From positions 72,766 to 136,765 of the forward strand of contig CAZBFO010000003.1 in NCBI GenBank assembly GCA_964491475.1: 64,000 nt of DNA, read 5' to 3'. A program made the position numbers and the translations under genes. Position 1 is the stretch's first letter. Each line of letters starts with the position of its first letter. The notes beneath the pieces were generated by a model. The model was not told the DNA's origin. It did not search any database and saw nothing but the letters and a program-made list of their open reading frames with translations. Shown one piece after another: positions 26,331 through 59,016 of this stretch. The stretch comes from an uncultured Gammaproteobacteria bacterium. GTDB taxonomy: Bacteria > Patescibacteriota > Patescibacteriia > SG8-24.

Positions 26331-26340
26331 TTGGCTCTAC

Positions 26341-27411: not shown

Positions 27412-27429
27412 TTTTCTGAAGCACGTCAT

Positions 27430-28299
27430 ATGAAAGCACTCATCTTCGGCGCAAAAGGAAATCTCGGCGGCGATTTGGTCCGCGTCTTTTTCGCGGCCGG
27501 TCATACGGTCGTGCCTCTTGATAGGGAAATGCTGGACGTTACCGATGCCGAGGCCGTCAAAGCGATGGTAACCGTGACCCATCCCGACGTCGTCATCAAC
27601 GTCGCCGCTTGGAACAACGTCGATGCGGCGGAAGACCCTGCCAATCGCGAGAAGGTCTTCGCGTTGAACGAGAAGGCACCCGCCGCGATGGCCGCTGCCG
27701 CCAAAGAGGTCGGTGCGAAGTTCGTGCATTACAGCACCGACTACGTTTTTGAAGGTACAAAGCCTGAAGGATACGTTGAGACTGACGAGCCGACGCCGGT
27801 TTCGGTCTACGGCCAGAGCAAGGCTGCTGCCGAACGCGCCGTGTTCGCGTCCGGCGCACGCGCTTACGTGTGCCGCACCAGCAAGCTGTTCGGTCAGCCG
27901 GGCACTTCTGCCAGCGCCAAGCCGAGCTTCGTGAGCGTCATGTGCAAGCTCGCGGCCACCAAGCCGGAGCTGTCCATCGTCAACGAGGAAGTCGGCATGC
28001 CCACCTACACGCGCCACCTCGCCGAGGCTACGCTGCGCCTGGTGAGCGAGGAGTTCGAGCCAGGCGTGTATCACCTGGTCAACGAAGGTCCGGGCGTCAC
28101 CTGGTACGACTTTGCCAACGAGTTCTTCGCACTGCAGGGCGTGACCACGCCGCGCAAGCCGGTGCCGATGTCGGCGTTTCCCCGGCCGGCAAAGCGTCCG
28201 CTGTTCGCGGCGCTGAAGAACACGAAGTTTCCGCCGTTGCCGCAGCGGGTGGAAGCCTTGAAGGCGTTTTTCGCGGAAGAACGGGTGGAGGCAAAGTAG
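27430..28299 (+). CDS. rfbD: dTDP-4-dehydrorhamnose reductase
   Basis: MKALIFGAKGNLG...VINVAAWNNVDAAE...YSTDYVFEG...YGQSKAAAE motifs of RmlD. Confidence 0.9.
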   Translation: MKALIFGAKGNLGGDLVRVFFAAGHTVVPLDREMLDVTDAEAVKAMVTVTHPDVVINVAAWNNVDAAEDPANREKVFALNEKAPAAMAAAAKEVGAKFVHYSTDYVFEGTKPEGYVETDEPTPVSVYGQSKAAAERAVFASGARAYVCRTSKLFGQPGTSASAKPSFVSVMCKLAATKPELSIVNEEVGMPTYTRHLAEATLRLVSEEFEPGVYHLVNEGPGVTWYDFANEFFALQGVTTPRKPVPMSAFPRPAKRPLFAALKNTKFPPLPQRVEALKAFFAEERVEAK

Positions 28300-28307
28300 G
28301 GAGTCGC

Positions 28308-28340
28308 AACCGCGCGAAAAGCGCGGTTTTCGTTTTCGCT
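28308..28340. terminator. Hairpin AACCGCGC-GAAAA-GCGCGGTT followed by TTCGTTTTC
   Basis: Perfect 8-bp GC-rich stem directly after the rfbD stop. Confidence 0.6.
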
Positions 28341-28393
28341 TAGCGACGACTGACCGTTATGTACCCCAGCGGTACATTTCCCGCCTGCCGACA

Positions 28394-28493
28394 TTGACAT
28401 TCGCCGTTTTTCTGCTACGTTTGAATCCTTCCGAAAAGCAGAGGCGATTCGGGAGGAAACCCCAACGTCGCAGAGGCGACAAGGAGTCACGAC
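28394..28493 (+). promoter_or_regulatory. Promoter (-35 TTGACA) plus ~95-nt leader of NUDIX-like gene A; a near-duplicate copy lies at 29269..29372
   Basis: CATTGACATTCGCC at 28392-28405 and a 3' block AAACCCCAACGTCGCAGAGGCGACAAGGAG before the ATG, both conserved with the second copy. Confidence 0.5.
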
Positions 28494-34111: not shown

Positions 34112-34194
34112 TCGGCAATTTCCCAAAAAAACGGCTCGTCCCCAGATACGGAAAAACGGCTTATTATGGCCGTTTTTTTGCCCTTTGACCTGCG

Positions 34195-37931: not shown

Positions 37932-37961
37932 AAAAACGACCCGCCTGCGCGGGTCGTTTTT
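37932..37961. terminator. Bidirectional hairpin AAAAACGACCCGC-CTGC-GCGGGTCGTTTTT between convergent pyrG and rpmA
   Basis: 9-bp stem flanked by an A-run and a T-run. Confidence 0.65.
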
Positions 37962-40115: not shown

Positions 40116-40130
40116 AACCGGGAGTCAAAA

Positions 40131-40158
40131 ACCGCCTAGCCGGGCGGTTTTCGTTTTC
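40131..40158. terminator. Bidirectional hairpin AAAACCGCC-TAGCCGG-GCGGTTTT between convergent genes
   Basis: Stem flanked by an A-run and a T-run. Confidence 0.55.
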
Positions 40159-45163: not shown

Positions 45164-46141
45164 CTATTGGGCGATGAGCGAATTGCCCGACACCGACTTG
45201 GAAACGCCGCCTTCGGTCCAGGTCACGGTGGCCGTGACCTGCTTGATGGTCGAGACGCCGAGGTAATCGGCGATGGTCAGGGTGCCGACGCCGCTGGGCA
45301 GGTCGAAGTACACGAACCGCTGCCAGTCGGTGGGCATCGAGCCGACGGTGTCGCTGTCGAAGTTCCAGCTGGTGGCGGTGCCGCTCTCGGTGATGCTGAC
45401 GTCGTCAACGTAGATCAGCGCGCCGGAAAGCGTCTGCAGGCCGGCGTCGCCGGTGGAGAAGGTGGAATCGGTGACGGTGGTCTGCAGCGTGCCGTTCTTG
45501 TACAGCGAGATGCCGGTGCCGCTGGTGACCACGCGGAGGGTGTACCAGGTGCCGGCGCTGTAGGTGGCGCTCTGCGACCACAGCGTGGTGACCGTGCCGT
45601 GGTAGACCTTGTCGAGCGCCAGTCCGCCGGAGGAATAGCGGTAGCGGTAGTGGTTTTCGGAGTCGCGGTAGTCGAACACCAGGCCCGCGCCCCAGCCGGA
45701 AGGGGAGCTGCTCAAGACGTCGAACTTGGCCGTCAGGTCCATGTCGGCATGATAGTTGCCGGGAATGACGGCCAAACCGGTCTCGCTGACCAGCGCCGTC
45801 TGCGCGGTTTCCATCGCCAGCGCGCGCGTGCCCGAAGGCGGGCTGGTGACCGTCTTCACCTTCCACGGGCCGCGTGTCAGTGACAGGCCTAGGAAGGCGC
45901 CGTTGGTGCGGTTGATCAGCTCGGTGAAGGAAAGCGTGCGCAGCGAGTCGATTTCCTCGCGCAGGAAGTTGCCGGCTTGGATGGCGTAAGTGGACTTGCG
46001 CAGCAGGTACGAGGCCGATATGGTCGAGGAAAAGACGGTAAGGATCACCGCCGCCATCAGTACGGTGACGATGGCTTCCATCAGCGTGAAGCCCGCAGTG
46101 GCCGACGGCCGTGCTGGCGAATGGAGGCGGGAACGGGGCAT
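45164..46141 (-). CDS. Type IV pilin-like protein (325 aa)
   Basis: Leader MPRSRLHSPARPSATAG then FTLMEAIVTVLMAAVILTVF, a class III signal peptide with G|FTLME. Confidence 0.7.
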   Translation of the reverse strand: MPRSRLHSPARPSATAGFTLMEAIVTVLMAAVILTVFSSTISASYLLRKSTYAIQAGNFLREEIDSLRTLSFTELINRTNGAFLGLSLTRGPWKVKTVTSPPSGTRALAMETAQTALVSETGLAVIPGNYHADMDLTAKFDVLSSSPSGWGAGLVFDYRDSENHYRYRYSSGGLALDKVYHGTVTTLWSQSATYSAGTWYTLRVVTSGTGISLYKNGTLQTTVTDSTFSTGDAGLQTLSGALIYVDDVSITESGTATSWNFDSDTVGSMPTDWQRFVYFDLPSGVGTLTIADYLGVSTIKQVTATVTWTEGGVSKSVSGNSLIAQ

Positions 46142-46148
46142 GCGGGCG

Positions 46149-47246
46149 TCAGTTGGATTCGGAGATCGATTGGGTCAGGGCGTAGATGGGCGTGATGACG
46201 GCCAAGGCGATGCCGCCGACCATGCCGCCGAGCATCAGGATCAGGATCGGCTCGATGATGGAGGAAAGGTTGCTCAACACCTGGTCGACCTGCTGCTCGT
46301 AGAAGGCGGCGATGTCGGAAAGCAGCTCGTCGACCGTGCCGGCGCGTTCGCCGACCAGCACCATCTGCACCAGCAGCGGCGGGAACAGGTTGCCGTGCGC
46401 GGCCAGGCTCCGGCCGATGCTCTCGCCCTTCTTGATGCGCTCGGCGGCGTCCAGCGTGGCGTCGCGGAAATGGACGTTGGCCAGCACCTGCGAGGTGACG
46501 TTGAACGCCTGGATGACCGGGATGTCGGTGTGCAGCAGGCCGGAAACGGTACGGGCGAAGCGCGCCAAGTTGACCTTGCGGGCGATCGGCCCGATGATCG
46601 GCGCGGAAATGATGACGCGATCCAAAAGGTAGGTGCCGATCTTGGTGCGGGCGAACATCACCAGGGCGGTGACGGTGACCGCTGCGCCGACGGCCACGAT
46701 GATGCCGTGATCGTGCGTGAAGTCCGTGATCTTGATGAGGATCTGGGTGGCCAGCGGCAGCTTGACGTTGCCGAATTCCTTGAAGACGCCGAGCAGCTTG
46801 GGCAGCACGAAGGTCACCAGCGCGATGACGATGCCGAGCATGGCCACGCAGACCACCACCGGGTAGGTCATTGCGCCCTTCACCTTGGAGCGGAGGTCGT
46901 AGTCCTTTTTCATCTGCTGGGTCAGCTCCTGAAGGACGTTTTCCAGCGTGCCGGAGACTTCGCCGATCTGGATCATGCTGACGAAGATGGACGGGAAGAT
47001 CTTGGGGAACTTGCCCAGCGAAGTCGAAAGGGGACGGCCGGCCTCGACGTCGGCCTTCACCAGACCGATGATCTTCTTGAAGGACTTCTTTTCGGCCTGC
47101 AGAGCCAAGGTGTTGAGCGCTTCGGAAATCGACAGGCCCGCATGGATCATCACCTTCAGGTTTTCCGTGAAAAACACCTTGTCGGTCAGCGGGACCGAGG
47201 AGTTGTACAGCAGGTAGTCGTTGAGACGTTGGACAAGCGAGGCCAT
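46149..47246 (-). CDS. pilC: Type IV pilus inner-membrane platform protein PilC (GspF family)
   Basis: Two T2SSF repeats, e.g. FSRQLATLLHAGIPL-like blocks ENLKVMIHAGLSISEAL and ARFARTVSGLLHTDIPVIQAF. Confidence 0.9.
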   Translation of the reverse strand: MASLVQRLNDYLLYNSSVPLTDKVFFTENLKVMIHAGLSISEALNTLALQAEKKSFKKIIGLVKADVEAGRPLSTSLGKFPKIFPSIFVSMIQIGEVSGTLENVLQELTQQMKKDYDLRSKVKGAMTYPVVVCVAMLGIVIALVTFVLPKLLGVFKEFGNVKLPLATQILIKITDFTHDHGIIVAVGAAVTVTALVMFARTKIGTYLLDRVIISAPIIGPIARKVNLARFARTVSGLLHTDIPVIQAFNVTSQVLANVHFRDATLDAAERIKKGESIGRSLAAHGNLFPPLLVQMVLVGERAGTVDELLSDIAAFYEQQVDQVLSNLSSIIEPILILMLGGMVGGIALAVITPIYALTQSISESN

Positions 47247-47264
47247 AGCGCGGTGATGAGGCGT

Positions 47265-49046
47265 TTAGTCGCGGGTGACGCGGAGAATCTCCTCGATGGT
47301 CGTGACGGCCTTCACCGCCTTGGCAAAACCGTCCTCGATCATGGTGATCATGCCCTCCTCGATGGCCGCCTGCTTGAGCTCGTCGGCGTTGGCCTTCTTG
47401 TTGACCAGCTTCTGCAGATTGGGCGTGAACTCGATGACCTCGTAGATGCCCATGCGGCCCTTGTAGCCTTCGTTGCCGCACTGGGCGCAGCCGGAGCCGC
47501 GCCAGAAGGTGGTGTCCTCGATCTTCTGGTTCGCGGCGACGATTTCTTCCTTCTTCAGCTTGGCCCAGATGCCGTCGAGATCGATCTGTTCGCGCAGCTG
47601 TTCCAGGGCGTGGTCCGGCAGCTTGTAGGAGCGGACGCAGTTGGGGCAGATCTTGCGGACCAGACGCTGGGCCACGATCATGTTGGCCGTGAACGAGATC
47701 AGGAACGGCGGCACGTTCATGTCGAGCAGGCGGGGGATGGAGGTGGCGGCGTCGTTGGTGTGCAGCGTGCCCATGACCAAGTGGCCGGTCATGGCGGCCT
47801 GCACGGCGATGCCGGCGGTCTCTTCGTCGCGGATTTCGCCGACCAGGATGATGTTGGGGTCCTGGCGCAGCAGCGAACGGAGGCCGGCGGCGAAGGTGAA
47901 GCCGATCTTGGAGTTGACTTGGCTCTGGTTGATGCCCGCCAGGCGGTATTCCACCGGGTCTTCCACCGTGGAGATGTTGACCTTGGGCGAGTTGAGCATG
48001 TTCAGCACCGAGTACAGCGTCGTGGACTTACCGGACCCCGTGGGTCCGGTGACAAAGATGATGCCGTGCGGCTTTTTCATGTTGCGCAGCACGATGTCGT
48101 AGGCCTTCTTCTGGAAACCGAGCTGCTCCAGGGTGAGCGGCTTGGTGCCTTCGGACAGCAGACGCATGACGATCTTCTCGCCGTCGTAGACCGGGAGGAT
48201 GGAGACGCGGAGGGCGAACTTGTAGTTGGGGTTGTCGATCTTGAAGCGGCCGTCCTGCGGCAGGCGGTGCTCGTCGAGCTTGAGGTTGGAGAGAATCTTT
48301 ATGCGCGCCACGATGCCCGAGGCGACGACCTTCTGGAAGGTCATCACCGGCTTGAGCACGCCGTCGACGCGAAAGCGCACGATGACTTCGGTCTCGCTGG
48401 GCTCGATGTGGATGTCGGAAGCGCCTTCCAGTACCGCGTGTTCCAAAATCGAGTCGACCACGCGGACGATCGGGATGTCTTCGGCCAGCTTGGAGAGCTT
48501 GTCCTCTTCGTCCTCCTCGCCAGGCTTGTTCTTTTTTATGGCGGTGAGTCCTCCCAGTTCCGCCGAGAGGCTCTGCTTGTACTGCTTGATGGCTTCCTCG
48601 AAGGAGCTGGGGTTGGTGTAGAACACCTTCAGCTTCAGGTTGGTCTTGCGTTTGATGAACTCAAAGGTCTGCAGGTCGGTGGGCTCCATCGTGGCCACGC
48701 GCAGCTCGTCGTCGGTCTTCTCGAAGGAAATCAGCTTGTGCGAGGCGGCGATGGGCTCGGGAATAAGGAAAAGGATGTCCTGGCGGATGGGGACCTCGCG
48801 CAAGTTGATGAACGGCAACTTGTAGAACTGCGCGGCGATGCGGTAGAGCATCTCTTCCGGCATCTTCTTCTCCTTGATGAGGTAGGTCTCCAGCTGCATG
48901 TTGGGGTCCTTCTCCTTGGCCTCCTTCAGGAGCTGGTTGATGCCCTTCATGTCGAAAGTGGCCGTCTCGCGCAGGATTTTCTTGAGCAGTTCGTTGTTCA
49001 GCATAAGGCGGGTGTGGGCATGCTTCGATGCCCCGAATTTTACCAC
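47265..49046 (-). CDS. pilB: Type IV pilus assembly ATPase PilB (GspE family)
   Basis: Walker A VTGPTGSGKSTTLYSVL. Asp box, His box and tetracysteine CPNC...CAQC present. N-terminal T2SSE_N region. Confidence 0.9.
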   Translation of the reverse strand: MVKFGASKHAHTRLMLNNELLKKILRETATFDMKGINQLLKEAKEKDPNMQLETYLIKEKKMPEEMLYRIAAQFYKLPFINLREVPIRQDILFLIPEPIAASHKLISFEKTDDELRVATMEPTDLQTFEFIKRKTNLKLKVFYTNPSSFEEAIKQYKQSLSAELGGLTAIKKNKPGEEDEEDKLSKLAEDIPIVRVVDSILEHAVLEGASDIHIEPSETEVIVRFRVDGVLKPVMTFQKVVASGIVARIKILSNLKLDEHRLPQDGRFKIDNPNYKFALRVSILPVYDGEKIVMRLLSEGTKPLTLEQLGFQKKAYDIVLRNMKKPHGIIFVTGPTGSGKSTTLYSVLNMLNSPKVNISTVEDPVEYRLAGINQSQVNSKIGFTFAAGLRSLLRQDPNIILVGEIRDEETAGIAVQAAMTGHLVMGTLHTNDAATSIPRLLDMNVPPFLISFTANMIVAQRLVRKICPNCVRSYKLPDHALEQLREQIDLDGIWAKLKKEEIVAANQKIEDTTFWRGSGCAQCGNEGYKGRMGIYEVIEFTPNLQKLVNKKANADELKQAAIEEGMITMIEDGFAKAVKAVTTIEEILRVTRD

Positions 49047-49149
49047 AATAAGAGGGGGTTGACCATCAACCCATGGGTGCTACCATCGAGGCTCGACGAT
49101 GCCGGCCCCGCCGCTTTGGCGGCTCCCGCAAATCGCGTATACTGTGAGC

Positions 49150-49536
49150 ATGTTGACCAGGCTCCACAATCCGCTCCGCAGGGCCGCCGCTTCCGTCCAG
49201 ATGGACTTGTTCACTCGCACGGTCGCCGTCATCGCTTTCGTGCCTTTGGTGCTGCAGTGGGCCATGATTTTGGCCTTCGTGGTCCCTCGGTTGGGCTCCC
49301 TGCATTTCCTGCGCCTCCACTATACGGCGGCCCAGGGCGTCGATTGGGTCGACGTCTGGTACGCCATCTTCCTGTTTCCGATGCTCGGCCTGACGGTCTT
49401 CGCCGTCAACCTGGCCATTGCCGCCCGACTTGGCAGGCGAAACCGTTCCTTGGGCCATGTCGTGATGGTCGCCACGGCGTTCATTGAGGCGATGCTGGCG
49501 GTTTCCGGCATCATCGCCGTGCTGCTGAACGGCTAG
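49150..49536 (+). CDS. Small membrane protein, hypothetical
   Basis: Four predicted TM helices. Divergent from pilB. Start chosen at the internal MLTRLHNP. Confidence 0.4.
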   Translation: MLTRLHNPLRRAAASVQMDLFTRTVAVIAFVPLVLQWAMILAFVVPRLGSLHFLRLHYTAAQGVDWVDVWYAIFLFPMLGLTVFAVNLAIAARLGRRNRSLGHVVMVATAFIEAMLAVSGIIAVLLNG

Positions 49537-49558: not shown

Positions 49559-50611
49559 ATGTCCCCGCTTGCCACCATCAAGATCTTGCTGCTCACCACC
49601 TTGTCGTTCGTCACGGCCATCCTCTGGACGCCGCTGCTCACCAATTTCCTGTTCAAATACAAGCTCGGCAAGCAGATCCGCACCGCCGAGTCGGCCCCGA
49701 TTTTCTCCAAGATGCATCAGGGCAAATCCGGTACGCCGACCATGGGCGGGGTGCTGATCTGGGGCACGACTCTCGCGCTCATCTTGGCGTTTCACGAGGC
49801 CAATCTGCTTGTCGGCGGCGCGTTCTTCGGCACCATGGACTTCCTCTCGCGCCAGCAGACGCTGCTGCCGCTGGGCGCGCTGGTCGCCTCGGCCATCGTC
49901 GGGCTGGTGGACGACTACTGGAACGTGCGTCGGCTCGGTCCCAAGGGCGGGGGATTGCGCATGCGTCACCGGCTGCTCCTGTACACGCTGATTGCCGCCG
50001 TCGGCGCCTGGTGGTTCTCCAGCAAGCTCGACTGGGACCTGTTCCGCATCCCGTTCGTCGGCTCATACAACATCGGTCTCTGGTACATTCCGGTATTCAT
50101 CCTGGTGATCGTCTCCACCTCGTTCTCGGTGAACGAGACCGACGGCCTCGACGGTTTGGCGGGCGGAGTGCTGCTGTCGTCGTTCGCGGCCTACGCGGCC
50201 ATCGCCTTCATGCAGGGGAAGACCGACTTGGCCGCGTTCTGCGGCGTCATCTGCGGCGCGCTGCTGGCCTTCCTGTGGTTCAACATCAATCCGGCACGGT
50301 TCTTCATGGGCGATACCGGCGCGATGTCGCTGGGCGTCACCTTGGGCATCGTGGCCATGCTTACCAACACGGCGCTGATCCTGCCGGTCATCGGGCTGGT
50401 GTTCGTCCTGGAGTCGCTGTCGGTCATCATCCAAGTGGGTTCCAAGAAGCTGCGCGGCAAGAAGGTGTTCCTGTCGGCGCCGGTCCACCATCACTTCGAG
50501 GCCATCGGATGGAGCGAACCGAAGATCGTGATGCGCTTCTGGATCATCGCTTCCGTCTCGTCGGTGCTGGGCCTGGTGTTCGCGCTCATCGACGCCGGTT
50601 ATTTCAACTAA
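49559..50611 (+). CDS. mraY: Phospho-N-acetylmuramoyl-pentapeptide transferase
   Basis: KSGTPTMGGVLIW...NETDGLDGLAGG...DTGAMSLG...HHHFE MraY motifs. Confidence 0.9.
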   Translation: MSPLATIKILLLTTLSFVTAILWTPLLTNFLFKYKLGKQIRTAESAPIFSKMHQGKSGTPTMGGVLIWGTTLALILAFHEANLLVGGAFFGTMDFLSRQQTLLPLGALVASAIVGLVDDYWNVRRLGPKGGGLRMRHRLLLYTLIAAVGAWWFSSKLDWDLFRIPFVGSYNIGLWYIPVFILVIVSTSFSVNETDGLDGLAGGVLLSSFAAYAAIAFMQGKTDLAAFCGVICGALLAFLWFNINPARFFMGDTGAMSLGVTLGIVAMLTNTALILPVIGLVFVLESLSVIIQVGSKKLRGKKVFLSAPVHHHFEAIGWSEPKIVMRFWIIASVSSVLGLVFALIDAGYFN

Positions 50612-50623
50612 CGCCTTCGCCAC

Positions 50624-53038
50624 ATGGGAAATTCCGACAACAACACGGTTGACCTGTTCAAGGGCGACGGCGACGAGAAGCGCCTGCCGGTGATTCCGCT
50701 GCGCGATACGGTGGTATTTCCGCGCGTGGCCACGCCGATCGTGGTGCGCCGCGAAAGGTCGCGCAAGGCGTTGGAAGAGGCCATGCGCCGTAACCGCATG
50801 GTGGTGCTGGTGGCCCAGCGCGACCCCGAAGCCTCCGACCCCAAGCCGGAACAGCTGTACTCCGTGGCCACCATCGCCAAGATCCGCGAGTCCACCAAGC
50901 AGAAGGACAAGACCATGCGCGTGGTGGTCGAGGGTTTGGCGCGCGTACGCCTGCGCGACCTGCAAGCCGACGCCGACTGCCTGCATGCCGACGTGCAGGC
51001 GATGCCCGAACCGACGGTGAAGAAGACGGAGCGGATAGAGGCGCTGATGTACAGCGCACTGAACCAGTTCCGCCGCGTGGTCAACATGGGCGCCAACGTC
51101 CCCTTCGACGCGCTTTTGGTGATCATGAACGTGGTCGATCCATGGCTGTTCGGCGACCTCATCGCCGCCAACCTGGAGATGAAGGTGGACGAGAAGCAGG
51201 CGATTTTGGAATCCGAGGACATCGATCACAAGTTGGATGCCGTCGGCCATGCGCTGGCGCGGCAGATCAAGCTGCTGCAGATGGCCACCAAGATCCAGCA
51301 GGAAACCGGCAAGGAGCTCGACAAGATGCAGCGCGAGGTGTTCCTGCGCGAGCAGATGAAGTCCATCGAGAAGGAGCTCGAGGGCATGGGCGGCAAGACC
51401 GACGCCGACGACCTCAAGGAGAAGCTGGACCGCGCCGACCTTCCGCCCGCCGCCAAGGAGAAGGCGATGAAGGAGTACGACCGCATGAAGGCCATGCCGT
51501 CGTTCAGTCCCGAAATTTCCTACTTGCGCACCTACCTGGAGTGGCTGGCGGACCTGCCGTGGAACAAAAAGGACGATTCGGTCATCGACATCGTCGCGGC
51601 CAAGAAGATTCTCGACGCCGATCACTTCGGCCTGGCCAAGGCAAAGGAGCGCATCGTCGAATACCTGGCGGTCGGCAAGCTGGTGGGCCGCATCCGCGGA
51701 CCCATCCTGTGCTTCGTCGGGCCGCCGGGCGTGGGCAAGACTTCCATCGGCAAGTCCATCGCCAAGTCGCTGGGCCGCAAGTTCTTCCGCATGAGCCTGG
51801 GCGGCGTCCGCGACGAGGCCGAGATCCGCGGGCATCGCCGCACTTACGTGGGCGCCTTGCCCGGCCGCATCATCCAGGGGATTGCCAACGTCAAGACGCG
51901 CAACCCCGTGTTCATGCTCGACGAGATCGACAAGGTCGGCAACGACGCCTTCCGCGGCGACCCGTCGGCGGCGCTGCTCGAAGCGCTCGACCCCGAGCAG
52001 AACAACGCCTTCTCCGATCATTATCTTGAGCTGCCGTTCGACTTGTCCGACGTGCTGTTCGTGACCACGGCCAACATGCTGGACACCATTCCGCCCGCGC
52101 TGCGCGACCGCATGGAGGTCATCGAGTTCCCCGGGTATACGGATGAAGAAAAGGTGCAGATCGCCGAGCGGCACCTGATTCCCAAGGCGATCAAGGACAA
52201 CGGGCTGACCGTCAGGCAGTGCGTCTTCACCCCGCCCGCGGTGCGCGCCATCATCCGCCTGTACACGCGCGAGGCCGGCGTCCGCAATTTGGAGCGCGAG
52301 ATTTCCGCCGTCTGCCGCAAGGTGGCACGGGCCGTTGCCGAGAAGAAAACCAAACGCCGCACCATCGCGCCTGCCGACTTGGCCGCGTTACTGGGGCCGG
52401 CGCGGTTCAGCGAGACGCTCAAGGAAGCCAAGGACGAAGTGGGCGTGGTCACCGGCCTTGCCTGGACCGAGGCCGGCGGAGAGATTCTGCAAATAGAGGC
52501 CACCAAGATGGCCGGCCGCGGCAACCTGACGCTCACCGGCCATTTGGGCGAGGTGATGCAGGAGTCGGCCAAGGCGGCCTTCTCGCACGTGCGGTCCATC
52601 GCCAACGACATGGGCGTCACCGGCGACTTCACCAAGGACGCCGACGTGCACGTGCACGTGCCCAGCGGCGCCATTCCCAAGGACGGCCCCTCTGCCGGCC
52701 TGGCCATCGCCACCGCGCTCGTGTCGATGATCACCGGCCGCAAGGTGCGCCGCAACGTCGCCATGACGGGTGAAATCACCTTGCGCGGCAAGGCGCTGGA
52801 GATCGGCGGCGTGAAGGAAAAGGTGCTGGCCGCATACCGCGCCGGCATCGAGACGATCATCCTGCCCGCCGAGAACAAGAAGGACTTGGTCGACGTGCCT
52901 GCGGAAATCCGCAAGAAGCTCAAGTTCATCTTCGTGAAGGACCTGGCTGGCGTGCTGGCACAGGCGTTGGAACCGGCAACGGCCGCAAAAAAAGCCGAAC
53001 CCGAGAACATGGCCCGGAAGAAAAAGAAAAAGGCCTAA
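50624..53038 (+). CDS. lon: ATP-dependent Lon protease
   Basis: LON N-terminal domain [24 protein letters not shown]+ [15 protein letters not shown]. Protease domain [17 protein letters not shown]...[12 protein letters not shown] (Ser-Lys dyad). Confidence 0.95.
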
Positions 53039-53041
53039 GGT

Positions 53042-54172
53042 ATGTTCCAAAAGAGACCGGACGCGAAGTTCCTGGTGCTGCTCTGCGCCCTGCTGGCGCT
53101 CGGCTTGGTGATGCTGACTTCCGCGTCCGGCCCTTTGGCGTTCGAGAAGTTCAACGACCCGTACTGGTACATCAAGCACCAGCTGTTGAACGGGCTGCTG
53201 CCCGGCATCATCTTGTTCGTGATTTTCGCGGCAATCGACTACCGCCATTGGCTCACTTGGTCGTCCAAGTTCCTGTACGCCTCGGTGGCCGCGCTGCTGC
53301 TGGTGTTCATTCCCGGCTTGGCGGCGGACTGGGGCACTTCCAAAAGCTGGATCCACGTCTTCGGCGTGTCGGTGCAGCCGGTCGAGGCGGTCAAGCTGCT
53401 GCTGCTGCTGTACTTGGCCGCGTTTTTTTCGCGCCGTGACGATGAGGCGATGCGCGACAGGCAGATGACGCTGGTGCCGTTCGTGACTTCGGTCGGCGCA
53501 GTCGCCGTGCTGCTGATGCTGCAGCCCGACCTCGGCAGCTTGCTGGTGGTGTCGTCCATCGCGCTTGCCGCATATTTCGTGGCGGGCGCGTCGCTGCTGC
53601 ATCTGGGCGGCTTGCTCCTCGCCGGTGCCGCCGGCGTGCTGGTGCTGGTGAAGAGCGCCCCGTATCGCGCCGCGCGCCTGATGACCTTCATGCATCCCGG
53701 CCTCGACCCGCAAGGCGTCGGCTACCACATCAACCAGGCTTTCTTGGCCATCGGTTCCGGCGGCTGGTTCGGCTTGGGGCTGGGCCACTCGCGGCAAAAG
53801 TACATGTACCTGCCGGAGGTCGCCGGCGACTCCATCTTCGCCGTCATGGCCGAAGAACTCGGCTTCATCTTCATGCTGGCAGTCGTGGCGCTGCTGGTGG
53901 CGTTCATGCTGCGCATGCTCAAGATCGGCCGCGAGGCGCCCGACAAGTTCGGCAAAATCGTCGCCATCGGCATAGTCGCCTGGGTATTCAGCCAGACGCT
54001 GTTCAACGCCGGCTCGATGGTCGGCATCATGCCCATCACCGGCCTGCCGATGCCCTTCATCAGCTACGGCGGCACGTCGCTGGCCGTATTAATGGCAGCC
54101 ATGGGCATCCTGGCCAACATCTCCTCGCACGCCGAACCGAGCGCGACTCCATCTCGCCGTCGCGACCGCTAG
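53042..54172 (+). CDS. ftsW: SEDS-family peptidoglycan glycosyltransferase (FtsW/RodA)
   Basis: 10 TM helices. SEDS motifs ...GFIFMLAVVALLVAFML...PITGLPMPFISYGGTS. Located between mraY/lon and murG. Confidence 0.85.
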   Translation: MFQKRPDAKFLVLLCALLALGLVMLTSASGPLAFEKFNDPYWYIKHQLLNGLLPGIILFVIFAAIDYRHWLTWSSKFLYASVAALLLVFIPGLAADWGTSKSWIHVFGVSVQPVEAVKLLLLLYLAAFFSRRDDEAMRDRQMTLVPFVTSVGAVAVLLMLQPDLGSLLVVSSIALAAYFVAGASLLHLGGLLLAGAAGVLVLVKSAPYRAARLMTFMHPGLDPQGVGYHINQAFLAIGSGGWFGLGLGHSRQKYMYLPEVAGDSIFAVMAEELGFIFMLAVVALLVAFMLRMLKIGREAPDKFGKIVAIGIVAWVFSQTLFNAGSMVGIMPITGLPMPFISYGGTSLAVLMAAMGILANISSHAEPSATPSRRRDR

Positions 54173-54187
54173 CACTTCTCTGGGACG

Positions 54188-54310
54188 TGGGTCCGGAGGC
54201 CTCCTCTGGACACGCTTGCGGACGCGCTGCGGCGCGTCCTCGCTCGTCCTCGCGTAAAGTCGGCTGCGGCCGACTTTCGCTGCGGATGGTCCAGAGGAGG
54301 CCTCCGGACC
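54188..54310. repeat. Palindromic structured element 1: perfect 23-bp inverted repeat GGGTCCGGAGGCCTCCTCTGGAC enclosing two GC-rich hairpins
   Basis: Outer arms 54188-54210 and 54288-54310 are exact reverse complements. Inner hairpins GGACGCGC-TGCG-GCGCGTCC and AAAGTCGGC-TGCG-GCCGACTTT. Confidence 0.7.
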
Positions 54311-54341
54311 CTCGTCCCCGAAACCGCGTGGCGGATTGGGG

Positions 54342-54492
54342 GGGCCGCGAGGCGGAGCAGGCGCGGCTGGAGGGGAGTTCGCAGGACAAAAATCGTCCGC
54401 AGACGATTTTTGGACGAGAGTAAGGTGCGGATTTTGCCCGCAGGCAAAATCCGACACCGACCCCTCCAGCCGCGCCTGCTCCGCCTCGCGGC
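54342..54492. repeat. Palindromic structured element 2: perfect 33-bp inverted repeat GGCCGCGAGGCGGAGCAGGCGCGGCTGGAGGGG enclosing two hairpins
   Basis: Outer arms 54342-54374 and 54460-54492 are exact reverse complements. Inner hairpins AAAAATCGT-CCGCAG-ACGATTTTT and CGGATTTTGCC-CGCA-GGCAAAATCCG. Confidence 0.7.
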
Positions 54493-54561
54493 CTTGGCTC
54501 CACCACGTTTTTGGGACAAGATGACCGCGGCGCTTCTTCGCCATTCAAAAGGGAAAGTCGT

Positions 54562-55641
54562 ATGCGCATAGTGTTTACCGGCGGCGGGTCGCTTGGGCCC
54601 GTGACGCCGCTCATTGCGGTGATGCACGAGATTCGTCGGCTTCGGCCAGACGCCTCTTTTTCGTGGATCGGCACGGAGGGCGGCGTGGAGGAGAGGTTGG
54701 TGAAGGAGGAGCACCTGCCCTTCAACGCCATTTCTTCGGGGAAGCTGCGCCGCTACTTTTCTTGGAAGACGTTCGTCGAGCCGCTGAACGTGGCTCGCGG
54801 TTTCTTTCAGGCGCGCAGGTTTCTTCGCGCCGAGGGGGCTGACGCGGTGGTGAGCGCCGGCGGGTTCGTGGCGGTGCCGGTCGCCTGGGCGGCATGGTCA
54901 TTGGGGATTCCGGTGCATGTGCATCAGCAGGATGTCATTCCGGGGTTGGCCAACCGGCTGACCCTGCCAGTGGCCAAGTCGCTGTCCGTGACGTTGGAGA
55001 AATCCGTGAAGGATTTTCCGGGGCACAAGGCGGTCTGGACCGGCAATCCGGTGCGGGCCGAAGTGCTTTCGGGGTCGCGCGAGCTGGCGCTGTCGTCGTT
55101 CGGGCTTGAACGCGGCGTGCCGGCGGTGCTGATCGTCGGCGGCGGCACGGGAGCCACGGGGCTGAACAAGCTGGTGTGGCCGATGTTGCACGTACTGACT
55201 GATCGCGCCGAAATCATCCACTCCGCGGGTCTCGGCAAAGCCGATTCGTCGAGGAAGATGGCGCGCTACCATCAGTTCGAGCTGCTCACCGGCAACATGC
55301 CCGAGGCGCTGGCGGTGGCCGACGTTGTCGTGACCCGCGCGGGAATGGGGCAGCTGACGGAGCTGGCCGCGCTCGGCAAGCCGACGGTCATCATCCCGAT
55401 GCCGGGCAGCCATCAGGAAGCCAATGCGGAAGCGTTCGGCGCGGGCGGGGGAGCGATCGTGCTTGACCAGCGCGAAACCACGCCGGAAACTTTCGCCGCG
55501 ACGGTCGCCGTGATGCTTGACGATGCCGCCGGACGGGCCCGGATGGCCAAGAAAATGCAGGCGATGCACCTGCCCGACGCGGCAGAACGCATTGCCAAAA
55601 CCGTCATCGGACTTGCCGACGGCCACCGAAAGCGGCGATAG
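54562..55641 (+). CDS. murG: UDP-N-acetylglucosamine--N-acetylmuramyl-(pentapeptide) pyrophosphoryl-undecaprenol N-acetylglucosamine transferase
   Basis: MRIVFTGGGSLGPVTPLIAV...VVSAGGFVAVPVAWAAWSLGIPVHVHQQD...VVVTRAGMGQLTELAALGKP MurG motifs. SD AGGGAAAG upstream. The longer ORF from 54511 would read into the palindromic element. Confidence 0.85.
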   Translation: MRIVFTGGGSLGPVTPLIAVMHEIRRLRPDASFSWIGTEGGVEERLVKEEHLPFNAISSGKLRRYFSWKTFVEPLNVARGFFQARRFLRAEGADAVVSAGGFVAVPVAWAAWSLGIPVHVHQQDVIPGLANRLTLPVAKSLSVTLEKSVKDFPGHKAVWTGNPVRAEVLSGSRELALSSFGLERGVPAVLIVGGGTGATGLNKLVWPMLHVLTDRAEIIHSAGLGKADSSRKMARYHQFELLTGNMPEALAVADVVVTRAGMGQLTELAALGKPTVIIPMPGSHQEANAEAFGAGGGAIVLDQRETTPETFAATVAVMLDDAAGRARMAKKMQAMHLPDAAERIAKTVIGLADGHRKRR

Positions 55642-55742
55642 GCGACCATCTTGACGAAACGCCTTTATTCTGCTAAGGTCTGCGGTCGCTCTTTTGCCCT
55701 TCATGTGCTCCTTTATATGCAATGCAAAGAGGACCCAAAACG

Positions 55743-55994
55743 ATGGCAGAAAGTATTCGAGAATCCGTTCGCAAGCGCCTCTTTGACGCTCGTCGCTGCA
55801 GCGACCCGTCGGCCTTGCTCAAAATGCTGGGCATGCACGTAAGCCGCCCCATGCTCGGTCCCGATGACCTGTCGGGCCTCACCGACCGGCAGGCGCAAAA
55901 GGCGCTTGATTTCCTGGACCGCTGGTTCCCGGACCGCTCGCTGAAACGCATCAGCGTCATCTGCGCCAAGGCACAGGCCGCCATCCGGCCATGA
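55743..55994 (+). CDS. Small hypothetical protein (about 83 aa)
   Basis: Plausible SD AGAGGA upstream of MAESIRE. No recognised domain. Codon usage is consistent with neighbours. Confidence 0.35.
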   Translation: MAESIRESVRKRLFDARRCSDPSALLKMLGMHVSRPMLGPDDLSGLTDRQAQKALDFLDRWFPDRSLKRISVICAKAQAAIRP

Positions 55995-56039
55995 CACGGC
56001 AACCGTTCGGTTGTCGTTTTTTTATTTTCCCAGTAGTCT

Positions 56040-58352
56040 TTGAGGGCTATGAGCGAATTGCCAAAGGAAGTGCCGATTGCCGAATTGGGAGCCAGGCGCG
56101 ACCAGCCGAAGATTGCCAAGTTCAACGAGCGCGCGGGCGACCTCGATCGCCGCCAAGAAGCCGGCGAAGACGTGTCCAAGGAGCGCGAGAAGCTCGACAT
56201 CGAACGCGAGACTTTTTATTACGAGCGCGACAATACCGGCGCCATCGTCCGCGACCGCTGGGGCGGAGACATCGTAGAGTCGTTTCGGGAAGAAGGGGAG
56301 CGTCTCAAGGAGCTGGAACCGAACGGCAAGATCAAGCCGAAAGAGTCTGACGAGCGCCAGCACGTGATGATGGTGGCAATGGCCGAGCTGGACCGTCTCA
56401 ATGACGAGGGCGGCCACGGCGGCGGCGACGCTTCATTGGAAAAGACTGCCGCCAACATCGAGGCGGTGATCGAAAAAGTGATGAGTGCCAAAGGCGCCGG
56501 CGGCAGCGTGGGCGAAAATGCCAGCTATGAGGTGTATCGTTACGGGGGCAACCAGTACGCCGTCGACCTCAAGGACATGGCTCCAGAGGCGGTCGCCGAA
56601 ATCACCGGGCTCCTGCGCAAACTCTCCGACAAGGAGCGCATTCCCGCGTCCTTGGAAAAGTCCGTAAAGGAGGCGCCGCCATTGGTGATCAGCAGCTTGA
56701 GCCGCAAGGAGCAGGTGACCATGATGAACAGCATTCAGGAGAAGCTGGCCGGGGCAGGACTGCAGCATTACGAAGGCGGAAAGGAGATGAATCGCGCCAT
56801 GGTCGACCTCGTGGCCAAGGCCAGCGACCTCGACATGGACATGGCGAAATTCGCCAACCGTGCCGAACGCGTCATGGAGAAAGTGGCGCGCGGCGACGCC
56901 GACGCCGACGCTTTTTTCGACAAATACATGAAGAAGGGCCTGGCCGGCAGCGCCTTCAGCTCGATTGAATCGTTCAAGAGCTTCATCGGTCCCGACGGCA
57001 AACAGACTCCCGAGTTCGCCTCGGCAGTGAGCGCCGAGGCCTCAAAGTCAGCCGCCCAGTGGTTGGCTTTGAGCAGCGCCGAGGCGGCTGACCGCGAGGT
57101 GATGGTCGCCCAAGTGGTCGCCAAGCTTCATGGCGCCACCTTGCCCGAGGTTCCCAGGGCCGAACGGTCCGGTGCCAGCGCCAATCGCGAGCTGCCCGAG
57201 CCGGAACTCGAGGGCAAGAAGCTGCTCGACCAACTCAAGGCCGAGGCCTCCGGCGCCGACGGCGATCTCGCAGAGCTGAAGCTCGGGCGAGAGAAGGCCA
57301 AGCGCGACGCGCTCACCGGCCTCGAAAAGCGCCGCACGTTCTACCTTGACCTCCGCGACCGGCTGACTCCCGACGAAGAAGGGAAGATCAAGGACACCTC
57401 CGTGGTGTTCATCGACATGGCCTTCCTCAAGTACTTCGACAAAGAAGGCGGAGCCGAAGTGGGCGACGCGGCCATCAAGCAGGCAGCCTGGGCGCTCGAA
57501 GAAGTGCAGCGCCGCATGGCCGCCAAAGGCATCGAGGTGAAGGCGCATCGCTATGCCGGCGACGAGTTTACCTTCACCGTCGACGGCGACCACGATGCCG
57601 CACGGCAGCTGACCGAAGAGCTGACCAAGGTTTCCAACGAGATTCCGCCGTTGCCGCGCCAGGCCACGTCCACCGACGCCTACGTCGACGCCGGCCTGTC
57701 ATTTAACTTCGGCGTCGCCGACGCCAAGGACCTGATGGTGCTGGAGCGCCGCATGCGCGAGCAGAAACTGGTGCCGCCCGAAGTCGACTCGAGCCCCGAA
57801 GCGCTGGCCAAGTGGCGGTCGGAGATGATCACCACCATGGCCGACGCCGGCGTGAAGGAGCAGAAGGCGCTCAACCGCTTCATGCAGCTGTACAACAAGC
57901 TGGCCGACGAGGAGCAGTTCAAGGAATCGCTCAAGTCGCAGGGCTTCAGCGACGAGCAGATCGACAACGGCATCAAGCGCCTGGTCGACTATTCGGAGAA
58001 GGCCCTCGGCAACAAGGGCAAGGACCTCAAGCGCTGGGTTGGCGAGGAGCGCATCGGTCCGGAAGAGCTGCTCAAGCGCGCCCAGGAGTCCATCAGCGAG
58101 CAGCAGCAGGGCGAGCTGAAGGAGAAGCGAGCCAAGATGGTCATCACCGACTTGGTGATCGAGTCAGGCGTGCACGAGGCCCGCTTTGACCGCGAAATCG
58201 CCGCGCAGAAGCGGCAGATGGCCGAGGTCGAGGCGCAGTACGGGCAGGAGCACGCCAAGTACCTGGCCATGAAGGACCGCATGACCAAACTCGAGACCGA
58301 GAAGGCGGACATGCTCAAAAAATACCTGGGCGGCATCGAGCAGCCCAAATAG
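56040..58352 (+). CDS. Large (770 aa) highly charged, predicted coiled-coil-rich cytoplasmic protein with a central degenerate GGDEF (AGDEF) diguanylate-cyclase-like domain
   Basis: RDALTGLEKRRTFYLDL...VVFIDMAFLKYFDKEGGAEVGDAAIK...HRYAGDEFTFTV follows the GGDEF domain order (DxLTGLxNRR ... DxD..FK..ND..GH..GD ... RYGGEEF). No TM segments. E/K/A/D-rich flanks. Confidence 0.7.
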   Translation: MRAMSELPKEVPIAELGARRDQPKIAKFNERAGDLDRRQEAGEDVSKEREKLDIERETFYYERDNTGAIVRDRWGGDIVESFREEGERLKELEPNGKIKPKESDERQHVMMVAMAELDRLNDEGGHGGGDASLEKTAANIEAVIEKVMSAKGAGGSVGENASYEVYRYGGNQYAVDLKDMAPEAVAEITGLLRKLSDKERIPASLEKSVKEAPPLVISSLSRKEQVTMMNSIQEKLAGAGLQHYEGGKEMNRAMVDLVAKASDLDMDMAKFANRAERVMEKVARGDADADAFFDKYMKKGLAGSAFSSIESFKSFIGPDGKQTPEFASAVSAEASKSAAQWLALSSAEAADREVMVAQVVAKLHGATLPEVPRAERSGASANRELPEPELEGKKLLDQLKAEASGADGDLAELKLGREKAKRDALTGLEKRRTFYLDLRDRLTPDEEGKIKDTSVVFIDMAFLKYFDKEGGAEVGDAAIKQAAWALEEVQRRMAAKGIEVKAHRYAGDEFTFTVDGDHDAARQLTEELTKVSNEIPPLPRQATSTDAYVDAGLSFNFGVADAKDLMVLERRMREQKLVPPEVDSSPEALAKWRSEMITTMADAGVKEQKALNRFMQLYNKLADEEQFKESLKSQGFSDEQIDNGIKRLVDYSEKALGNKGKDLKRWVGEERIGPEELLKRAQESISEQQQGELKEKRAKMVITDLVIESGVHEARFDREIAAQKRQMAEVEAQYGQEHAKYLAMKDRMTKLETEKADMLKKYLGGIEQPK

Positions 58353-58739: not shown

Positions 58740-58815
58740 GGGTCGGTAGCTCAGTCGGTAGAGCAACGGCCTTTTAAGCCGATGGTCCCGGGTTCGATCC
58801 CCGGCCGACCCACCA
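58740..58815 (+). tRNA. tRNA-Lys (anticodon UUU), CCA encoded
   Basis: GGGTCGG acceptor stem pairs with CCGACCC. D-arm AGCTCAGTCGGTAGAGC. Anticodon loop CUUUUAA. T-arm CCGGG-TTCGATC-CCCGG. Discriminator A followed by CCA. Confidence 0.9.
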
Positions 58816-58817
58816 CG

Positions 58818-58848
58818 AAAAGACCGCAGAAGGTACTGCGGTCTTTTC
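58818..58848. terminator. Hairpin AAAAGACCGCAG-AAGGTAC-CTGCGGTCTTTT directly after tRNA-Lys
   Basis: 12-bp perfect stem and T-run. Shares the AAAAGACCG/CGGTCTTTT core with the hairpin at 1470..1503. Confidence 0.65.
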
Positions 58849-59016
58849 GTACCCGAGCCACCCATTGACACCCTCCCTCATCCGTGCCAACATGCACCGT
58901 TGTCCGTCTTACTCCCAAACCGCCCGCTTTAAGGGGCTTTCACGCGGCCAGGCGGTTTCGGGAGGCCGGTCGGCACAACGCTAGGTTTCTTTCTGCAGCA
59001 GGACAGGAGGCTCACC

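Follow-up and report, generated by a model that had tools for sequence, protein, structure and literature searches.

The gap between ftsW and murG in an uncultured, GC-rich, Patescibacteria-like MAG holds about 320 nt of extra non-coding DNA, which raises the question of whether this DNA is a regulator of the essential gene that follows it or an inserted passenger. We addressed the question within a 64 kb stretch of the genome (hereinafter the window). A SEDS FtsW/RodA-family gene (53042-54172) lies upstream of the block and murG (54562-55641) follows 389 nt away on the same strand, in agreement with the gene names proposed in an initial annotation of the same DNA. The window is tightly packed and has no longer gap than this one of 389 nt. 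The initial annotation had filled it with two adjacent long palindromes, each enclosing a pair of hairpins, and had offered three readings: a structured cis-regulatory RNA for murG, a pair of REP/MITE-like elements or a protein-binding cruciform site. All of the palindromes and hairpins are present, at coordinates one base higher than had been given. The block holds no credible ORF, as had also been stated; its six-frame products are without known match, and a six-frame pseudo-protein of the block, in a search that is powerless for short shared arms, finds no match at E values up to 10 among 5.8 billion proteins, and neither this sequence nor a near-identical one has ever had a gene called on it.

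Two nested palindromes in the ftsW-murG gap

The block comprises two elements, E1 and E2, separated by a short linker and followed by the part of the spacer that is shared with relatives:

54179..54321, plus strand: E1 whole, 143 nt; imperfect outer stem, then 23 perfect bp, then a 77-nt core that holds two hairpins
54189..54211, unstranded: E1 left arm, perfect part, 23 nt, GGGTCCGGAGGCCTCCTCTGGAC
54220..54239, plus strand: E1 hairpin h1, 8 bp, GGACGCGC-TGCG-GCGCGTCC
54256..54277, plus strand: E1 hairpin h2, 9 bp, AAAGTCGGC-TGCG-GCCGACTTT, terminator-like
54289..54311, unstranded: E1 right arm, perfect part, 23 nt; 54312-54321 form the imperfect outer part
54322..54342, unstranded: E1-E2 linker, 21 nt, AACCGCGTGGCGGATTGGGGG
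54343..54493, minus strand: E2 whole, 151 nt; 33-bp perfect stem and 85-nt core
54343..54375, unstranded: E2 left arm, 33 nt, perfect
54387..54412, minus strand: E2 counterpart of h2, 11 bp, CAAAAATCGTC-TGCG-GACGATTTTTG, with A5/T5 and the look of a bidirectional terminator
54428..54453, minus strand: E2 counterpart of h1, 11 bp, CGGATTTTGCC-TGCG-GGCAAAATCCG
54461..54493, unstranded: E2 right arm, 33 nt, perfect; homology to the relatives' spacer sets in at its last base
54494..54561, plus strand: kept ancestral ftsW-murG spacer, 68 nt; the 72-nt spacer of relatives L004 and L016 aligns to it in full

The E1 arms pair at 23/23 positions and, when extended outwards (54179-54211 with 54289-54321), at 31/33, the outer stem from 54179 to 54188 contributing 8/10 further pairs. 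Apart from the one-base shift, the annotated description of E1 (exact 23-nt arms around a 77-nt interior with two TGCG hairpins) is correct, and its C(TGCG)G loops are read on the plus strand. The E2 arms pair at 33/33, again as described, but the inner hairpins of E2 are longer than had been written, both having 11-bp stems and 4-nt CGCA loops. From the end of E2 to the murG ATG there are 68 nt.

E1 and E2 are the sole long spaced inverted repeats in the window, and hairpins with TGCG or CGCA loops and stems of at least 7 bp occur there only within them. Each arm matches its partner and nothing else in the 64 kb at up to 3 mismatches, with a chance expectation of 0.00-0.12, which answers, within the window, the annotation's proposal to look for dispersed copies of the arms. 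The 396-nt spacer is predicted to fold at -274 kcal/mol on the plus strand and -269 kcal/mol on the minus strand (z = -17 for both). All 95 of the 95 core base pairs are Watson-Crick, with no G-U pair, while self-folding of the single arms is non-significant (z = -0.3 to -2.3). In a further ~1.08 Mb of DNA, at least two hairpins inside a long inverted repeat (minimum arm length 15 nt) occur only in L066, which is unrelated, and in L063, a hairpin-saturated mitochondrial contig.

Related cores within unrelated arms

The two elements had been described as having the same architecture, and the comparison sharpens this description: E2 is the architecture of E1 inverted. Global alignment of the ~80-nt cores gives z = 6.1 for E1 against inverted E2 (reached in 0/500 shuffles) and z = 0.2 in the same orientation, with 55/74 ungapped columns identical, so that it is the minus-strand reading of the E2 core that is homologous to the E1 core. 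In this register E1 h2 is homologous to the E2 hairpin at 54387-54412, the loops read C(TGCG)G in 4/4 hairpins, and the junction lengths are 8/16/11 in E1 and 7/15/11 in inverted E2. Two double compensatory changes distinguish the h2 hairpins of E1 and E2. A MAFFT alignment of E1 with inverted E2 was not structurally sensible. The long arms of E1 and E2, in contrast to the cores, share no sequence (z = -0.1 and -0.2).

Absence of the block from relatives

Two relatives with 78% identical MurG (L004 and L016) have an ftsW-murG spacer of 72 nt and a third with 64% identical MurG (L015) has one of 38 nt, all without palindromes; E1 and E2 are absent from 4/4 relatives in which either the spacer or the sequence upstream of murG is readable, and the locus is carried by one genome only. 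The entire L004/L016 spacer aligns to 54494-54561 of the window, and the extra DNA is therefore 54173-54493. Its right end is the last base of the E2 arm and its left start lies no more than 6 nt before the outer arm of E1. The block is thus a lineage-specific, non-coding, insertion-like piece of DNA with its right boundary at an arm end. Because the relatives are distant (MurG identity at most 78%), its absence from them shows gain or loss and not recent transposition. Neither element has a convincing target-site duplication: TTGG flanks E2 on both sides, the left copy being offset by GGG, and nothing was seen around E1. A direct repeat flanking the block (54173-54186 and 54504-54517) is at noise level in self-BLAST.

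The sequences on either side of E2 may be the halves of an older hairpin, the left half comprising 54316-54321 and the linker (54322-54342) and the right half 54498-54517, interrupted by E2. In silico deletion of E2 yields a hairpin of -24.7 kcal/mol (z = -2.85, p ~0.04 against random junctions). The relatives have no terminator hairpin at the corresponding position (z = +1.2).

Terminator-type hairpins and the search for further copies

The inner hairpins have the common A-tract/C(TGCG)G/T-tract form of terminators, the style in which this genome's own terminators are also built. A relaxed h2 pattern had 120 metagenome matches, 54 of them perfect A-tract/stem/TGCG/stem/T-tract hairpins on unrelated contigs and none inside a long inverted repeat; these matches reveal no family but show a generic terminator form. 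A consensus scan calls no intrinsic terminator in 54173-54561, where the T runs (3-5 nt) belong to stems.

Copies of the two-hairpin core were sought with custom structure descriptors. Neither the 64 kb window nor the fetched relatives contain more copies of the arms, the cores or the two-hairpin module, which makes a family with at least 50 copies per Mb unlikely. Exact patterns for the h2 consensus, both arms and both h1 hairpins have 0 matches in viral contigs, and in BLASTN comparisons with phages and plasmids the block has short chance matches only, mostly within unrelated coding genes. Pfam scans of the ~58 ORFs of the window detect no transposase, integrase, RAYT, reverse transcriptase or recombinase domain, and the Y1 transposase domain is likewise absent from these ORFs. 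Within the block, ARAGORN finds no tRNA or tmRNA and a tandem-repeat scan nothing relevant; a consensus scan calls no promoter-like site in the spacer, the E1 and E2 segments included, and the GC skew profile has no origin- or terminus-like switch around 54.3 kb.

Origin of the block

We tentatively favor the reading that the block consists of two diverged copies of a small foldback insertion, of MITE, BOX or Correia-like type, just 3′ of ftsW. Among the three options of the initial annotation the REP/MITE-like one fits best, in that the block is a discrete lineage-specific insertion of foldback size and architecture; the differing arms and the lack of copies in 64 kb go against it. MITEs are non-coding, ~50-500 bp long and bounded by terminal inverted repeats, and E1 (143 nt) and E2 (151 nt), with arms of 23-33 nt, have these features. 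They also show presence/absence variation between relatives, since L004, L016 and L015 are without the block, while dispersed copies with conserved terminal repeats were not found within the 64 kb window. Overall, the block looks more like selfish foldback DNA than like a conserved gene switch.

According to this foldback reading, 54179-54493 would represent two diverged paralogues, in opposite orientation, of an ~80-nt module with two terminator hairpins, a long perfect inverted repeat of its own enclosing each copy. A small, putatively mobile, non-autonomous insertion element, or a pair of such elements, would have landed immediately 3′ of ftsW, E2 possibly inside a pre-existing ftsW terminator hairpin, in its loop. 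The uniformly Watson-Crick helices suggest that a DNA-level process, rather than selection on RNA, keeps them intact on both strands, either by arm-to-arm copying and correction through hairpin-templated synthesis (cf. quasipalindrome template switching) or simply by a very recent insertion. If co-transcribed, the elements would form two three-way-junction stem-loops of about -100 kcal/mol each, which could act independently of orientation as a barrier, as double-stranded sites for RNase III-type processing or as a site of partial termination between the two genes. Such an effect on the transcript would be a side effect and not the output of a sensor. If the block is a plain foldback insertion, it carries a warning that a striking structure before an essential gene need not be a regulator, and it means that a compact Patescibacteria genome tolerates ~320 bp of palindromic DNA in a cell-division and cell-wall cluster.

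An origin in place, without mobility, appears rather unlikely to us: one or two terminator hairpins downstream of ftsW would have been duplicated in inverted form, lengthened into long perfect palindromes by replication template switching and kept perfect by quasipalindrome correction, with termination as their only role. Quasipalindrome correction by template switch is an established mutational mechanism (PMC7202029). The copies are neighboring (21 nt apart) and inverted, their inner hairpins are like the ordinary terminators of this genome, and their helices are all Watson-Crick, with perfection greatest centrally and falling outwards (8/10 pairs in the outer stem of E1, an imperfect outer hairpin around E2); the 64 kb contain no other copy and no mobile-element genes. 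Local inverted duplication could equally be the source of adjacent inverted copies. Template switching, however, copies existing flank, so that one arm per pair should be ancestral, yet neither arm is matched in the relatives' spacer, which aligns wholly downstream of E2, or elsewhere in the window. The edge of the block is also the end of the E2 arm, as expected of a discrete inserted unit, and the relatives lack a terminator hairpin here (z = +1.2). Selection for a cis-acting RNA of the ftsW-murG transcript, be it an RNase III processing or stability site, an attenuator, or an insulator fixing the ratio of ftsW to murG expression, is less probable still. The position between same-strand genes, the extreme predicted stability and the compensatory changes, which preserve all helices across both copies, would suit such an RNA, as would the C(UGCG)G loop, a UNCG-type tetraloop that is frequent in terminators. 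The opposite orientation of E1 and E2 nevertheless places the UNCG loops of E2 on the non-transcribed strand. A weak complementarity of the 3′ half of h2 (54271-54281) to the murG ribosome-binding region (54550-54560) is at noise level (E = 2.6, self-BLAST). The structure is conserved in no homologous spacer, its 0/95 G-U pairs and perfect 33-bp duplexes are unlike known riboregulators, and the murG-proximal 68 nt, the ancestral spacer, are intact. Rfam 15, searched at E values up to 10, yields no family but only sub-threshold miRNA-precursor and other matches that the long hairpins cause, the top one, plant MIR1858, being a generic long-hairpin match with 51 bits against a gathering score of 137. 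The first option of the initial annotation, a structured cis-regulatory RNA for murG, fails under the refuting condition that the annotation itself had set, as the relatives' spacers are without the elements; the lack of an Rfam family, the opposite orientations and the 0/95 G-U pairs add to this, and a conserved murG riboregulator is not supported. As to its cruciform option, spacers of 77-85 nt make extrusion of the long arms unlikely.

We give very little weight to the possibility that E1 and E2 are two invertons, that is, 77-85-bp segments flipped by site-specific or homologous recombination so as to reorient terminator hairpins, the opposite cores being a flip/flop snapshot. The perfect inverted repeats of 23-33 bp around short segments and the occurrence of cores in both orientations are what such a system would produce, and one short-read contig ends at 54180, a stop that is unexplained by k-mer collision and for which population heterogeneity is one possible cause. 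However, this stop falls at the outer edge of E1 and not at an arm/core junction, where inversion heterogeneity would break the assembly graph. The segments of 77-85 bp are much shorter than those known from characterized invertons, the 64 kb encode no recombinase domain, no promoter-like site lies within the segments, and a flip would alter little in hairpins so close to symmetric. An artefact of assembly or amplification, such as a chimeric fold-back in the MAG contig, is similarly improbable, even though only one genome has the block and independent short-read contigs from the same samples stop at the elements without crossing them. One of these separate contigs (L003), in an assembly that presumably used k = 31, begins at 54464, the first 31-mer not common to the E2 left arm, and joins 30 nt of the E2 right arm to the murG leader. 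This start is where a 33-nt perfect inverted repeat would break a k = 31 graph, which requires the left arm to be present in the reads and lends the 33-nt repeat independent support. Nested 8-11-bp tetraloop hairpins and two diverged homologous cores are moreover unlike chimeric inversions, and the arms copy no neighboring genomic sequence.

Comparison with known systems

The REP unit is a conserved, imperfectly palindromic sequence of ~20-40 nt; it recurs tens to hundreds of times and goes together with a RAYT (Y1 transposase) gene. In common with E1 and E2, REPs and REPINs are palindromic and intergenic; in REPINs two inverted copies fold into one long hairpin, and in BIMEs the orientation alternates. 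Membership in this group was rejected, as the arms are not significantly self-palindromic (z = -0.3 to -2.3), are not conserved, and have neither copies nor a Y1 domain beside them in the window. The Correia elements of Neisseria (CREE/NEMIS) and MITEs of ERIC and RPE type come closer: they are units of ~100-155 bp with inverted repeats of ~26 bp, they sit between operon genes, and they form long hairpins if co-transcribed. Correia elements have a TA target duplication, an IHF site and about a hundred or more copies. Their terminal repeats are conserved, whereas the arms of E1 and E2 are mutually unrelated; a clear duplication and known further copies are lacking here, and two hairpins lie inside each element. 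The Correia duplex is bound and cleaved by RNase III (PMC2649163), which cuts at the inverted repeats (PMC10969869).

BOX elements consist of a closing stem of boxA and boxC around a variable number of boxB hairpins, and SPRITE repeats form a terminator-like duplex; both cluster, insert into each other and affect co-transcribed genes via their structure (PMC3049150, PMC10969869). These Streptococcus pneumoniae repeats resemble E1 and E2 in being shorter than 200 bp, non-coding and intergenic, and BOX further shares the outer closing stem around independent inner hairpins. At the sequence level no similarity exists. The Firmicute repeats BOX and SPRITE are AT-rich to neutral in composition, number 30-125 per genome and have conserved outer modules, while E1 and E2 are two known copies with mutually unrelated, perfectly paired arms in a GC-rich Patescibacteria-like host.

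Variable stems around a conserved interior also characterize TIGR-Tas, a system of Patescibacteria and phages whose units have 'variable but consistently palindromic' flanking stems (PMC12045711). Each interior carries two 8-12-nt spacers bounded by box C and box D, a Tas (Nop-domain) gene is adjacent, dual-repeat arrays mostly have 5-15 units, and the characterized stem-loop example has 13 stem-loops (PMC12045711). Assignment of our locus to such an array was discarded: it has two units with two-hairpin interiors of 77-85 nt, and none of the ~58 ORFs in the 64 kb encodes a Nop domain.

In topology, E1 and E2 match T- or Y-shaped terminal hairpins, namely the ITRs of parvoviruses and AAV and the telomere foldbacks of Streptomyces, in which a long stem with perfect arms meets two small hairpins at a three-way junction and flip/flop forms occur. 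The likeness is one of resemblance only: those structures cap linear replicons, whose replication they prime, whereas E1 and E2 are internal to a chromosome, among housekeeping neighbors and without replication or resolution genes nearby. Classical MITEs and REPINs conserve their terminal repeats, while in E1 and E2 conservation lies in the core and the arms are unrelated. Recurrence of this pattern of conserved core and unique arms elsewhere in the genome or in the phylum would point to a DNA-level mechanism that either makes and keeps palindromes of this nested kind or homes in on hairpin loops. Extremely stable three-way-junction hairpins would then be available from nature, and their effects on an operon (RNase III cleavage, termination, ftsW-murG polarity) are testable. 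We regard it as improbable that E1 and E2 belong to an undescribed class of T-shaped (ITR-like) foldback DNA in Patescibacteria, with a conserved ~80-nt core, unique perfect arms, either insertion into the loop of an existing hairpin such as a terminator or the making of a fresh inverted repeat around the core at each site, and hairpin-templated upkeep of the arms. Such a class would spread and be maintained in a manner unlike that of elements with transposase-recognized terminal repeats.

Anatomy of the ftsW-murG spacer

The 389-nt gap between ftsW and murG exceeds every other intergenic gap in the window, whose genes are tightly packed (local gene order mraY-lon-ftsW-[E1 E2]-murG-small ORF-GGDEF), and contains two nested-palindrome elements, E1 (plus orientation) and E2 (minus orientation), in each of which outer inverted repeats (arms) enclose a core of ~80 nt with two inner hairpins (h1 and h2). 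A sequence check bears out the palindromes and inner hairpins described in the initial annotation, but places them one base higher than it had put them; both hairpins of the E2 interior are likewise present, yet longer than it had noted.

Features of the ftsW-murG locus (window positions)
53042-54172, SEDS-family ftsW
54179 / 54321, outward limits of extended E1 pairing, 31/33 paired
54189-54211 / 54289-54311, E1 perfect arms, 23/23 paired
54220-54239, E1 hairpin 1, in the 77-nt interior, GGACGCGC-TGCG-GCGCGTCC
54256-54277, E1 hairpin 2, in the 77-nt interior, AAAGTCGGC-TGCG-GCCGACTTT
54343-54375 / 54461-54493, E2 perfect arms, 33/33 paired
54387-54412 and 54428-54453, E2 hairpins, in the 85-nt interior, 11-bp stems, CGCA loops
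54562-55641, murG

The six core helices consist entirely of Watson-Crick pairs (95/95), free of G-T pairs and mismatches, and both DNA strands therefore fold equally well. The arms show no significant self-palindromy. The structure is real, statistically extreme and far above chance expectation. The 64-kb window has no long spaced inverted repeats besides E1 and E2, each arm matches only its own partner there (up to three mismatches), TGCG/CGCA loops on stems of at least 7 bp are confined to their four hairpins, and the predicted spacer fold reaches about -270 kcal/mol on either strand (z = -17). Two descriptor scans (long inverted repeat around at least two hairpins; C(TGCG)G hairpin pairs) return E1 and E2 alone in the window, and the relatives contain no similar structure.

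Inverted homology of the two elements

The claim that both elements have the same architecture holds, with E2 being the E1 layout turned around. When E2 is read on the minus strand, its junctions measure 7/15/11 nt compared with 8/16/11 nt in E1, and all four hairpin loops become C(TGCG)G. The cores align in inverted orientation with z = 6.1 (55 of 74 ungapped columns identical; 0/500 shuffles as good), compared with z = 0.2 in the same orientation. Between the copies, h2 differs by two double, compensatory substitutions, while h1 retains the pairs at its base and those closing its loop around a middle that is swapped for a different, still perfectly paired stretch. The E1 and E2 arms have no common sequence (z = -0.1 and -0.2).

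Lineage specificity and assembly support

Identical copies of MurG, FtsW and Lon are encoded by a single NCBI contig (335,428 bp) and, apart from it, only by short Logan contigs (SRR12313479, SRR12313480). The nearest named homologues are from Parcubacteria/Patescibacteria, and MurG identity in the closest genomes is 78-80%. The ftsW-murG spacer is 72 nt in two relatives (L004, a groundwater MAG, and L016) and 38 nt in a third (L015, MurG 64%), and none of these spacers contains a palindrome. Because the 72-nt spacer aligns in full with 54494-54561, the extra DNA corresponds to 54173-54493; its right end is the last base of the E2 right arm and its left end lies at most 6 nt before the E1 outer arm. 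Either the block formed by E1, the linker and E2 was gained in this lineage or all sampled relatives have lost it; its boundaries are the arm ends, and the murG-proximal spacer has stayed intact.

None of the Logan contigs (SRR12313479, SRR12313480) crosses the block, and all stop at its edges. One of them (L003) starts at 54464, the first 31-mer not common to both E2 arms, where a break would be expected if the reads truly contain the 33-nt inverted repeat; we take the Logan assembly k to be 31. The stops of the other two (L001 at 54180, L002 at 54173) are not explained by k-mer collision and could reflect a variant at 54181, which adjoins the L001 stop and is one of two mismatched positions in the E1 outer stem, an empty-site allele (population heterogeneity) or poor hairpin coverage.

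The surrounding cell-wall/division cluster (49559-58352) has an unusual order, with a full-length Lon protease gene between mraY and ftsW, a small ORF and a 770-aa GGDEF protein after murG, and no murD or murC between or after the genes. A GGDEF gene also follows murG in another relative (L014), but without ftsW ahead of murG.

Terminator-type inner hairpins

A metagenome scan with the pattern common to both h2 hairpins matched at least 120 stretches. Among the matches listed, at least 54 are perfect A-run/stem/C-TGCG-G/stem/T-run hairpins, from unrelated contigs that span all G+C contents, and none is enclosed by a long inverted repeat. This is the ordinary form of a bidirectional intrinsic terminator, with a UNCG-type loop. 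The inner hairpins also match the style of the genome's own likely terminators (1464-1503, 12814-12839, 34152-34177, 37932-37961, 40128-40151 and 58815-58850), which are perfect symmetric A-run/stem/T-run hairpins of bidirectional design with stems up to 17 bp. Given both the generic form in unrelated contigs and the likeness to these terminators, we regard the inner hairpins as terminator-type modules and not as the mark of a special family.

Deleting E2 and one TTGG in silico yields CCCGAAACCGCGTGGCGGA-TTGGC-TCCACCACGTTTTTGGG, a hairpin predicted at -24.7 kcal/mol (z = -2.85) that beats 96% of random junctions. This suggests, but does not prove, that E2 occupies the loop of an earlier ftsW terminator; no equivalent hairpin is present in the relatives.

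Other palindromes and compositional features

An element unrelated to E1 and E2 (13042-13177 of metagenome contig L066, Ga0209737_10001940) is also T-shaped, with perfect 18-nt arms (CAATGCCGTCAACTTAAG) that enclose a 100-nt interior holding a 17-bp hairpin with a TTC loop and a 9-bp hairpin with a GAA loop. The architecture thus recurs elsewhere, though rarely (1 case in ~1 Mb of random contigs). The hairpin pattern scan also found a metagenome contig (L063, positions 1-9175, Ga0209598_10005347) whose non-coding DNA is nearly all perfect nested hairpins, with more than 30 matches to an inverted repeat around at least two hairpins, many 15-bp stems with 3-nt loops, and an 801-nt piece with a predicted fold of -346 kcal/mol (z = -45). 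Since it carries cytochrome oxidase subunit I at one end (Pfam COX1, E = 5e-98), the contig is probably part of a mitochondrial genome inflated by palindromic repeats. The same 46-nt terminator-like hairpin, CGCCAAAAACAAAAAGTCACCTGCGGGTGACTTTTTGTTTTTGTTG, with an 18-bp stem, recurs unchanged in five metagenome contigs (L038, L086, L095, L114, L130) and, with one change, in L124; it may come from a widespread phage, plasmid or organism.

Within the window, third-position G+C falls to 0.57-0.68 at 24863-28490 and 45990-49487, compared with ~0.85 elsewhere. Most ORFs there, including one of 1165 aa at 45990-49487, have no Pfam match, and the two regions may be foreign DNA or mis-called frames.

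Searches for known classes

Rfam gave only miRNA-hairpin matches below threshold, no tRNA or tmRNA was detected, no promoter or terminator was called within the spacer, and the skew profile showed no switch. Five exact-pattern scans of viral contigs returned 0 matches, BLASTN against phages and plasmids only chance G+C-rich matches, and a six-frame pseudo-protein query no match among 5.8 billion proteins. Pfam searches of the ~58 ORFs of the 64 kb revealed no transposase, integrase, Y1 transposase, reverse transcriptase, recombinase or Nop-domain protein. TIGR-Tas stem-loop arrays, known from Patescibacteria and built on palindromic stems that vary, were rejected as a match on the published criteria (PMC12045711), a Nop-domain protein being absent from the 64 kb.

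Origin of the block

A conserved riboregulator of murG, along the lines of the initial annotation's cis-regulatory RNA option, is not supported, since homologous spacers show no conservation of the elements, the two units lie in opposite orientations, G-U pairs are absent and the duplexes are 33 bp and perfect. Its REP/MITE-like option fits best by architecture, although dispersed copies with conserved termini, the hallmark of such elements, are absent from the 64-kb window, and no clean target duplication was found. Overall, the block best fits the non-coding foldback DNA that is called MITE-like repeats; it is an orphan, lineage-specific, and most likely selfish or structural DNA.

The conserved core and unique arms of E1 and E2 invert the pattern of classical MITEs, and this oddity keeps two other readings open. 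The arrangement could have arisen locally, through inverted duplication and growth of the palindromes, which we consider rather unlikely; that the core is itself the mobile unit, acquiring or building new arms at each site, seems quite improbable. We give little weight to an inverton, to a selected processing site or to an artefact.

We propose the foldback reading, in which a small foldback insertion would be present as two copies, E1 and E2, that have diverged. Arm-to-arm copying of the kind seen in quasipalindrome template switching (PMC7202029) may keep their helices perfect at the DNA level, or the perfection may reflect recent insertion. If co-transcribed, the block would yield two orientation-independent, very stable stem-loops impeding or processing the ftsW-murG transcript. 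The data show directly the anatomy, the homology of the cores, the lineage specificity and the block's boundaries, from which mobility, the way the helices are maintained and the effect on RNA are inferred. The proposal follows the precedents of pneumococcal BOX elements, in which a closing stem encloses one or more independent inner hairpins as in E1 and E2, of the terminator-like SPRITE repeats (PMC3049150), and of Correia elements, whose inverted repeats form long duplexes in transcripts that are bound or cut by RNase III (PMC2649163, PMC10969869); such small intergenic repeats cluster and insert into each other (PMC10969869).
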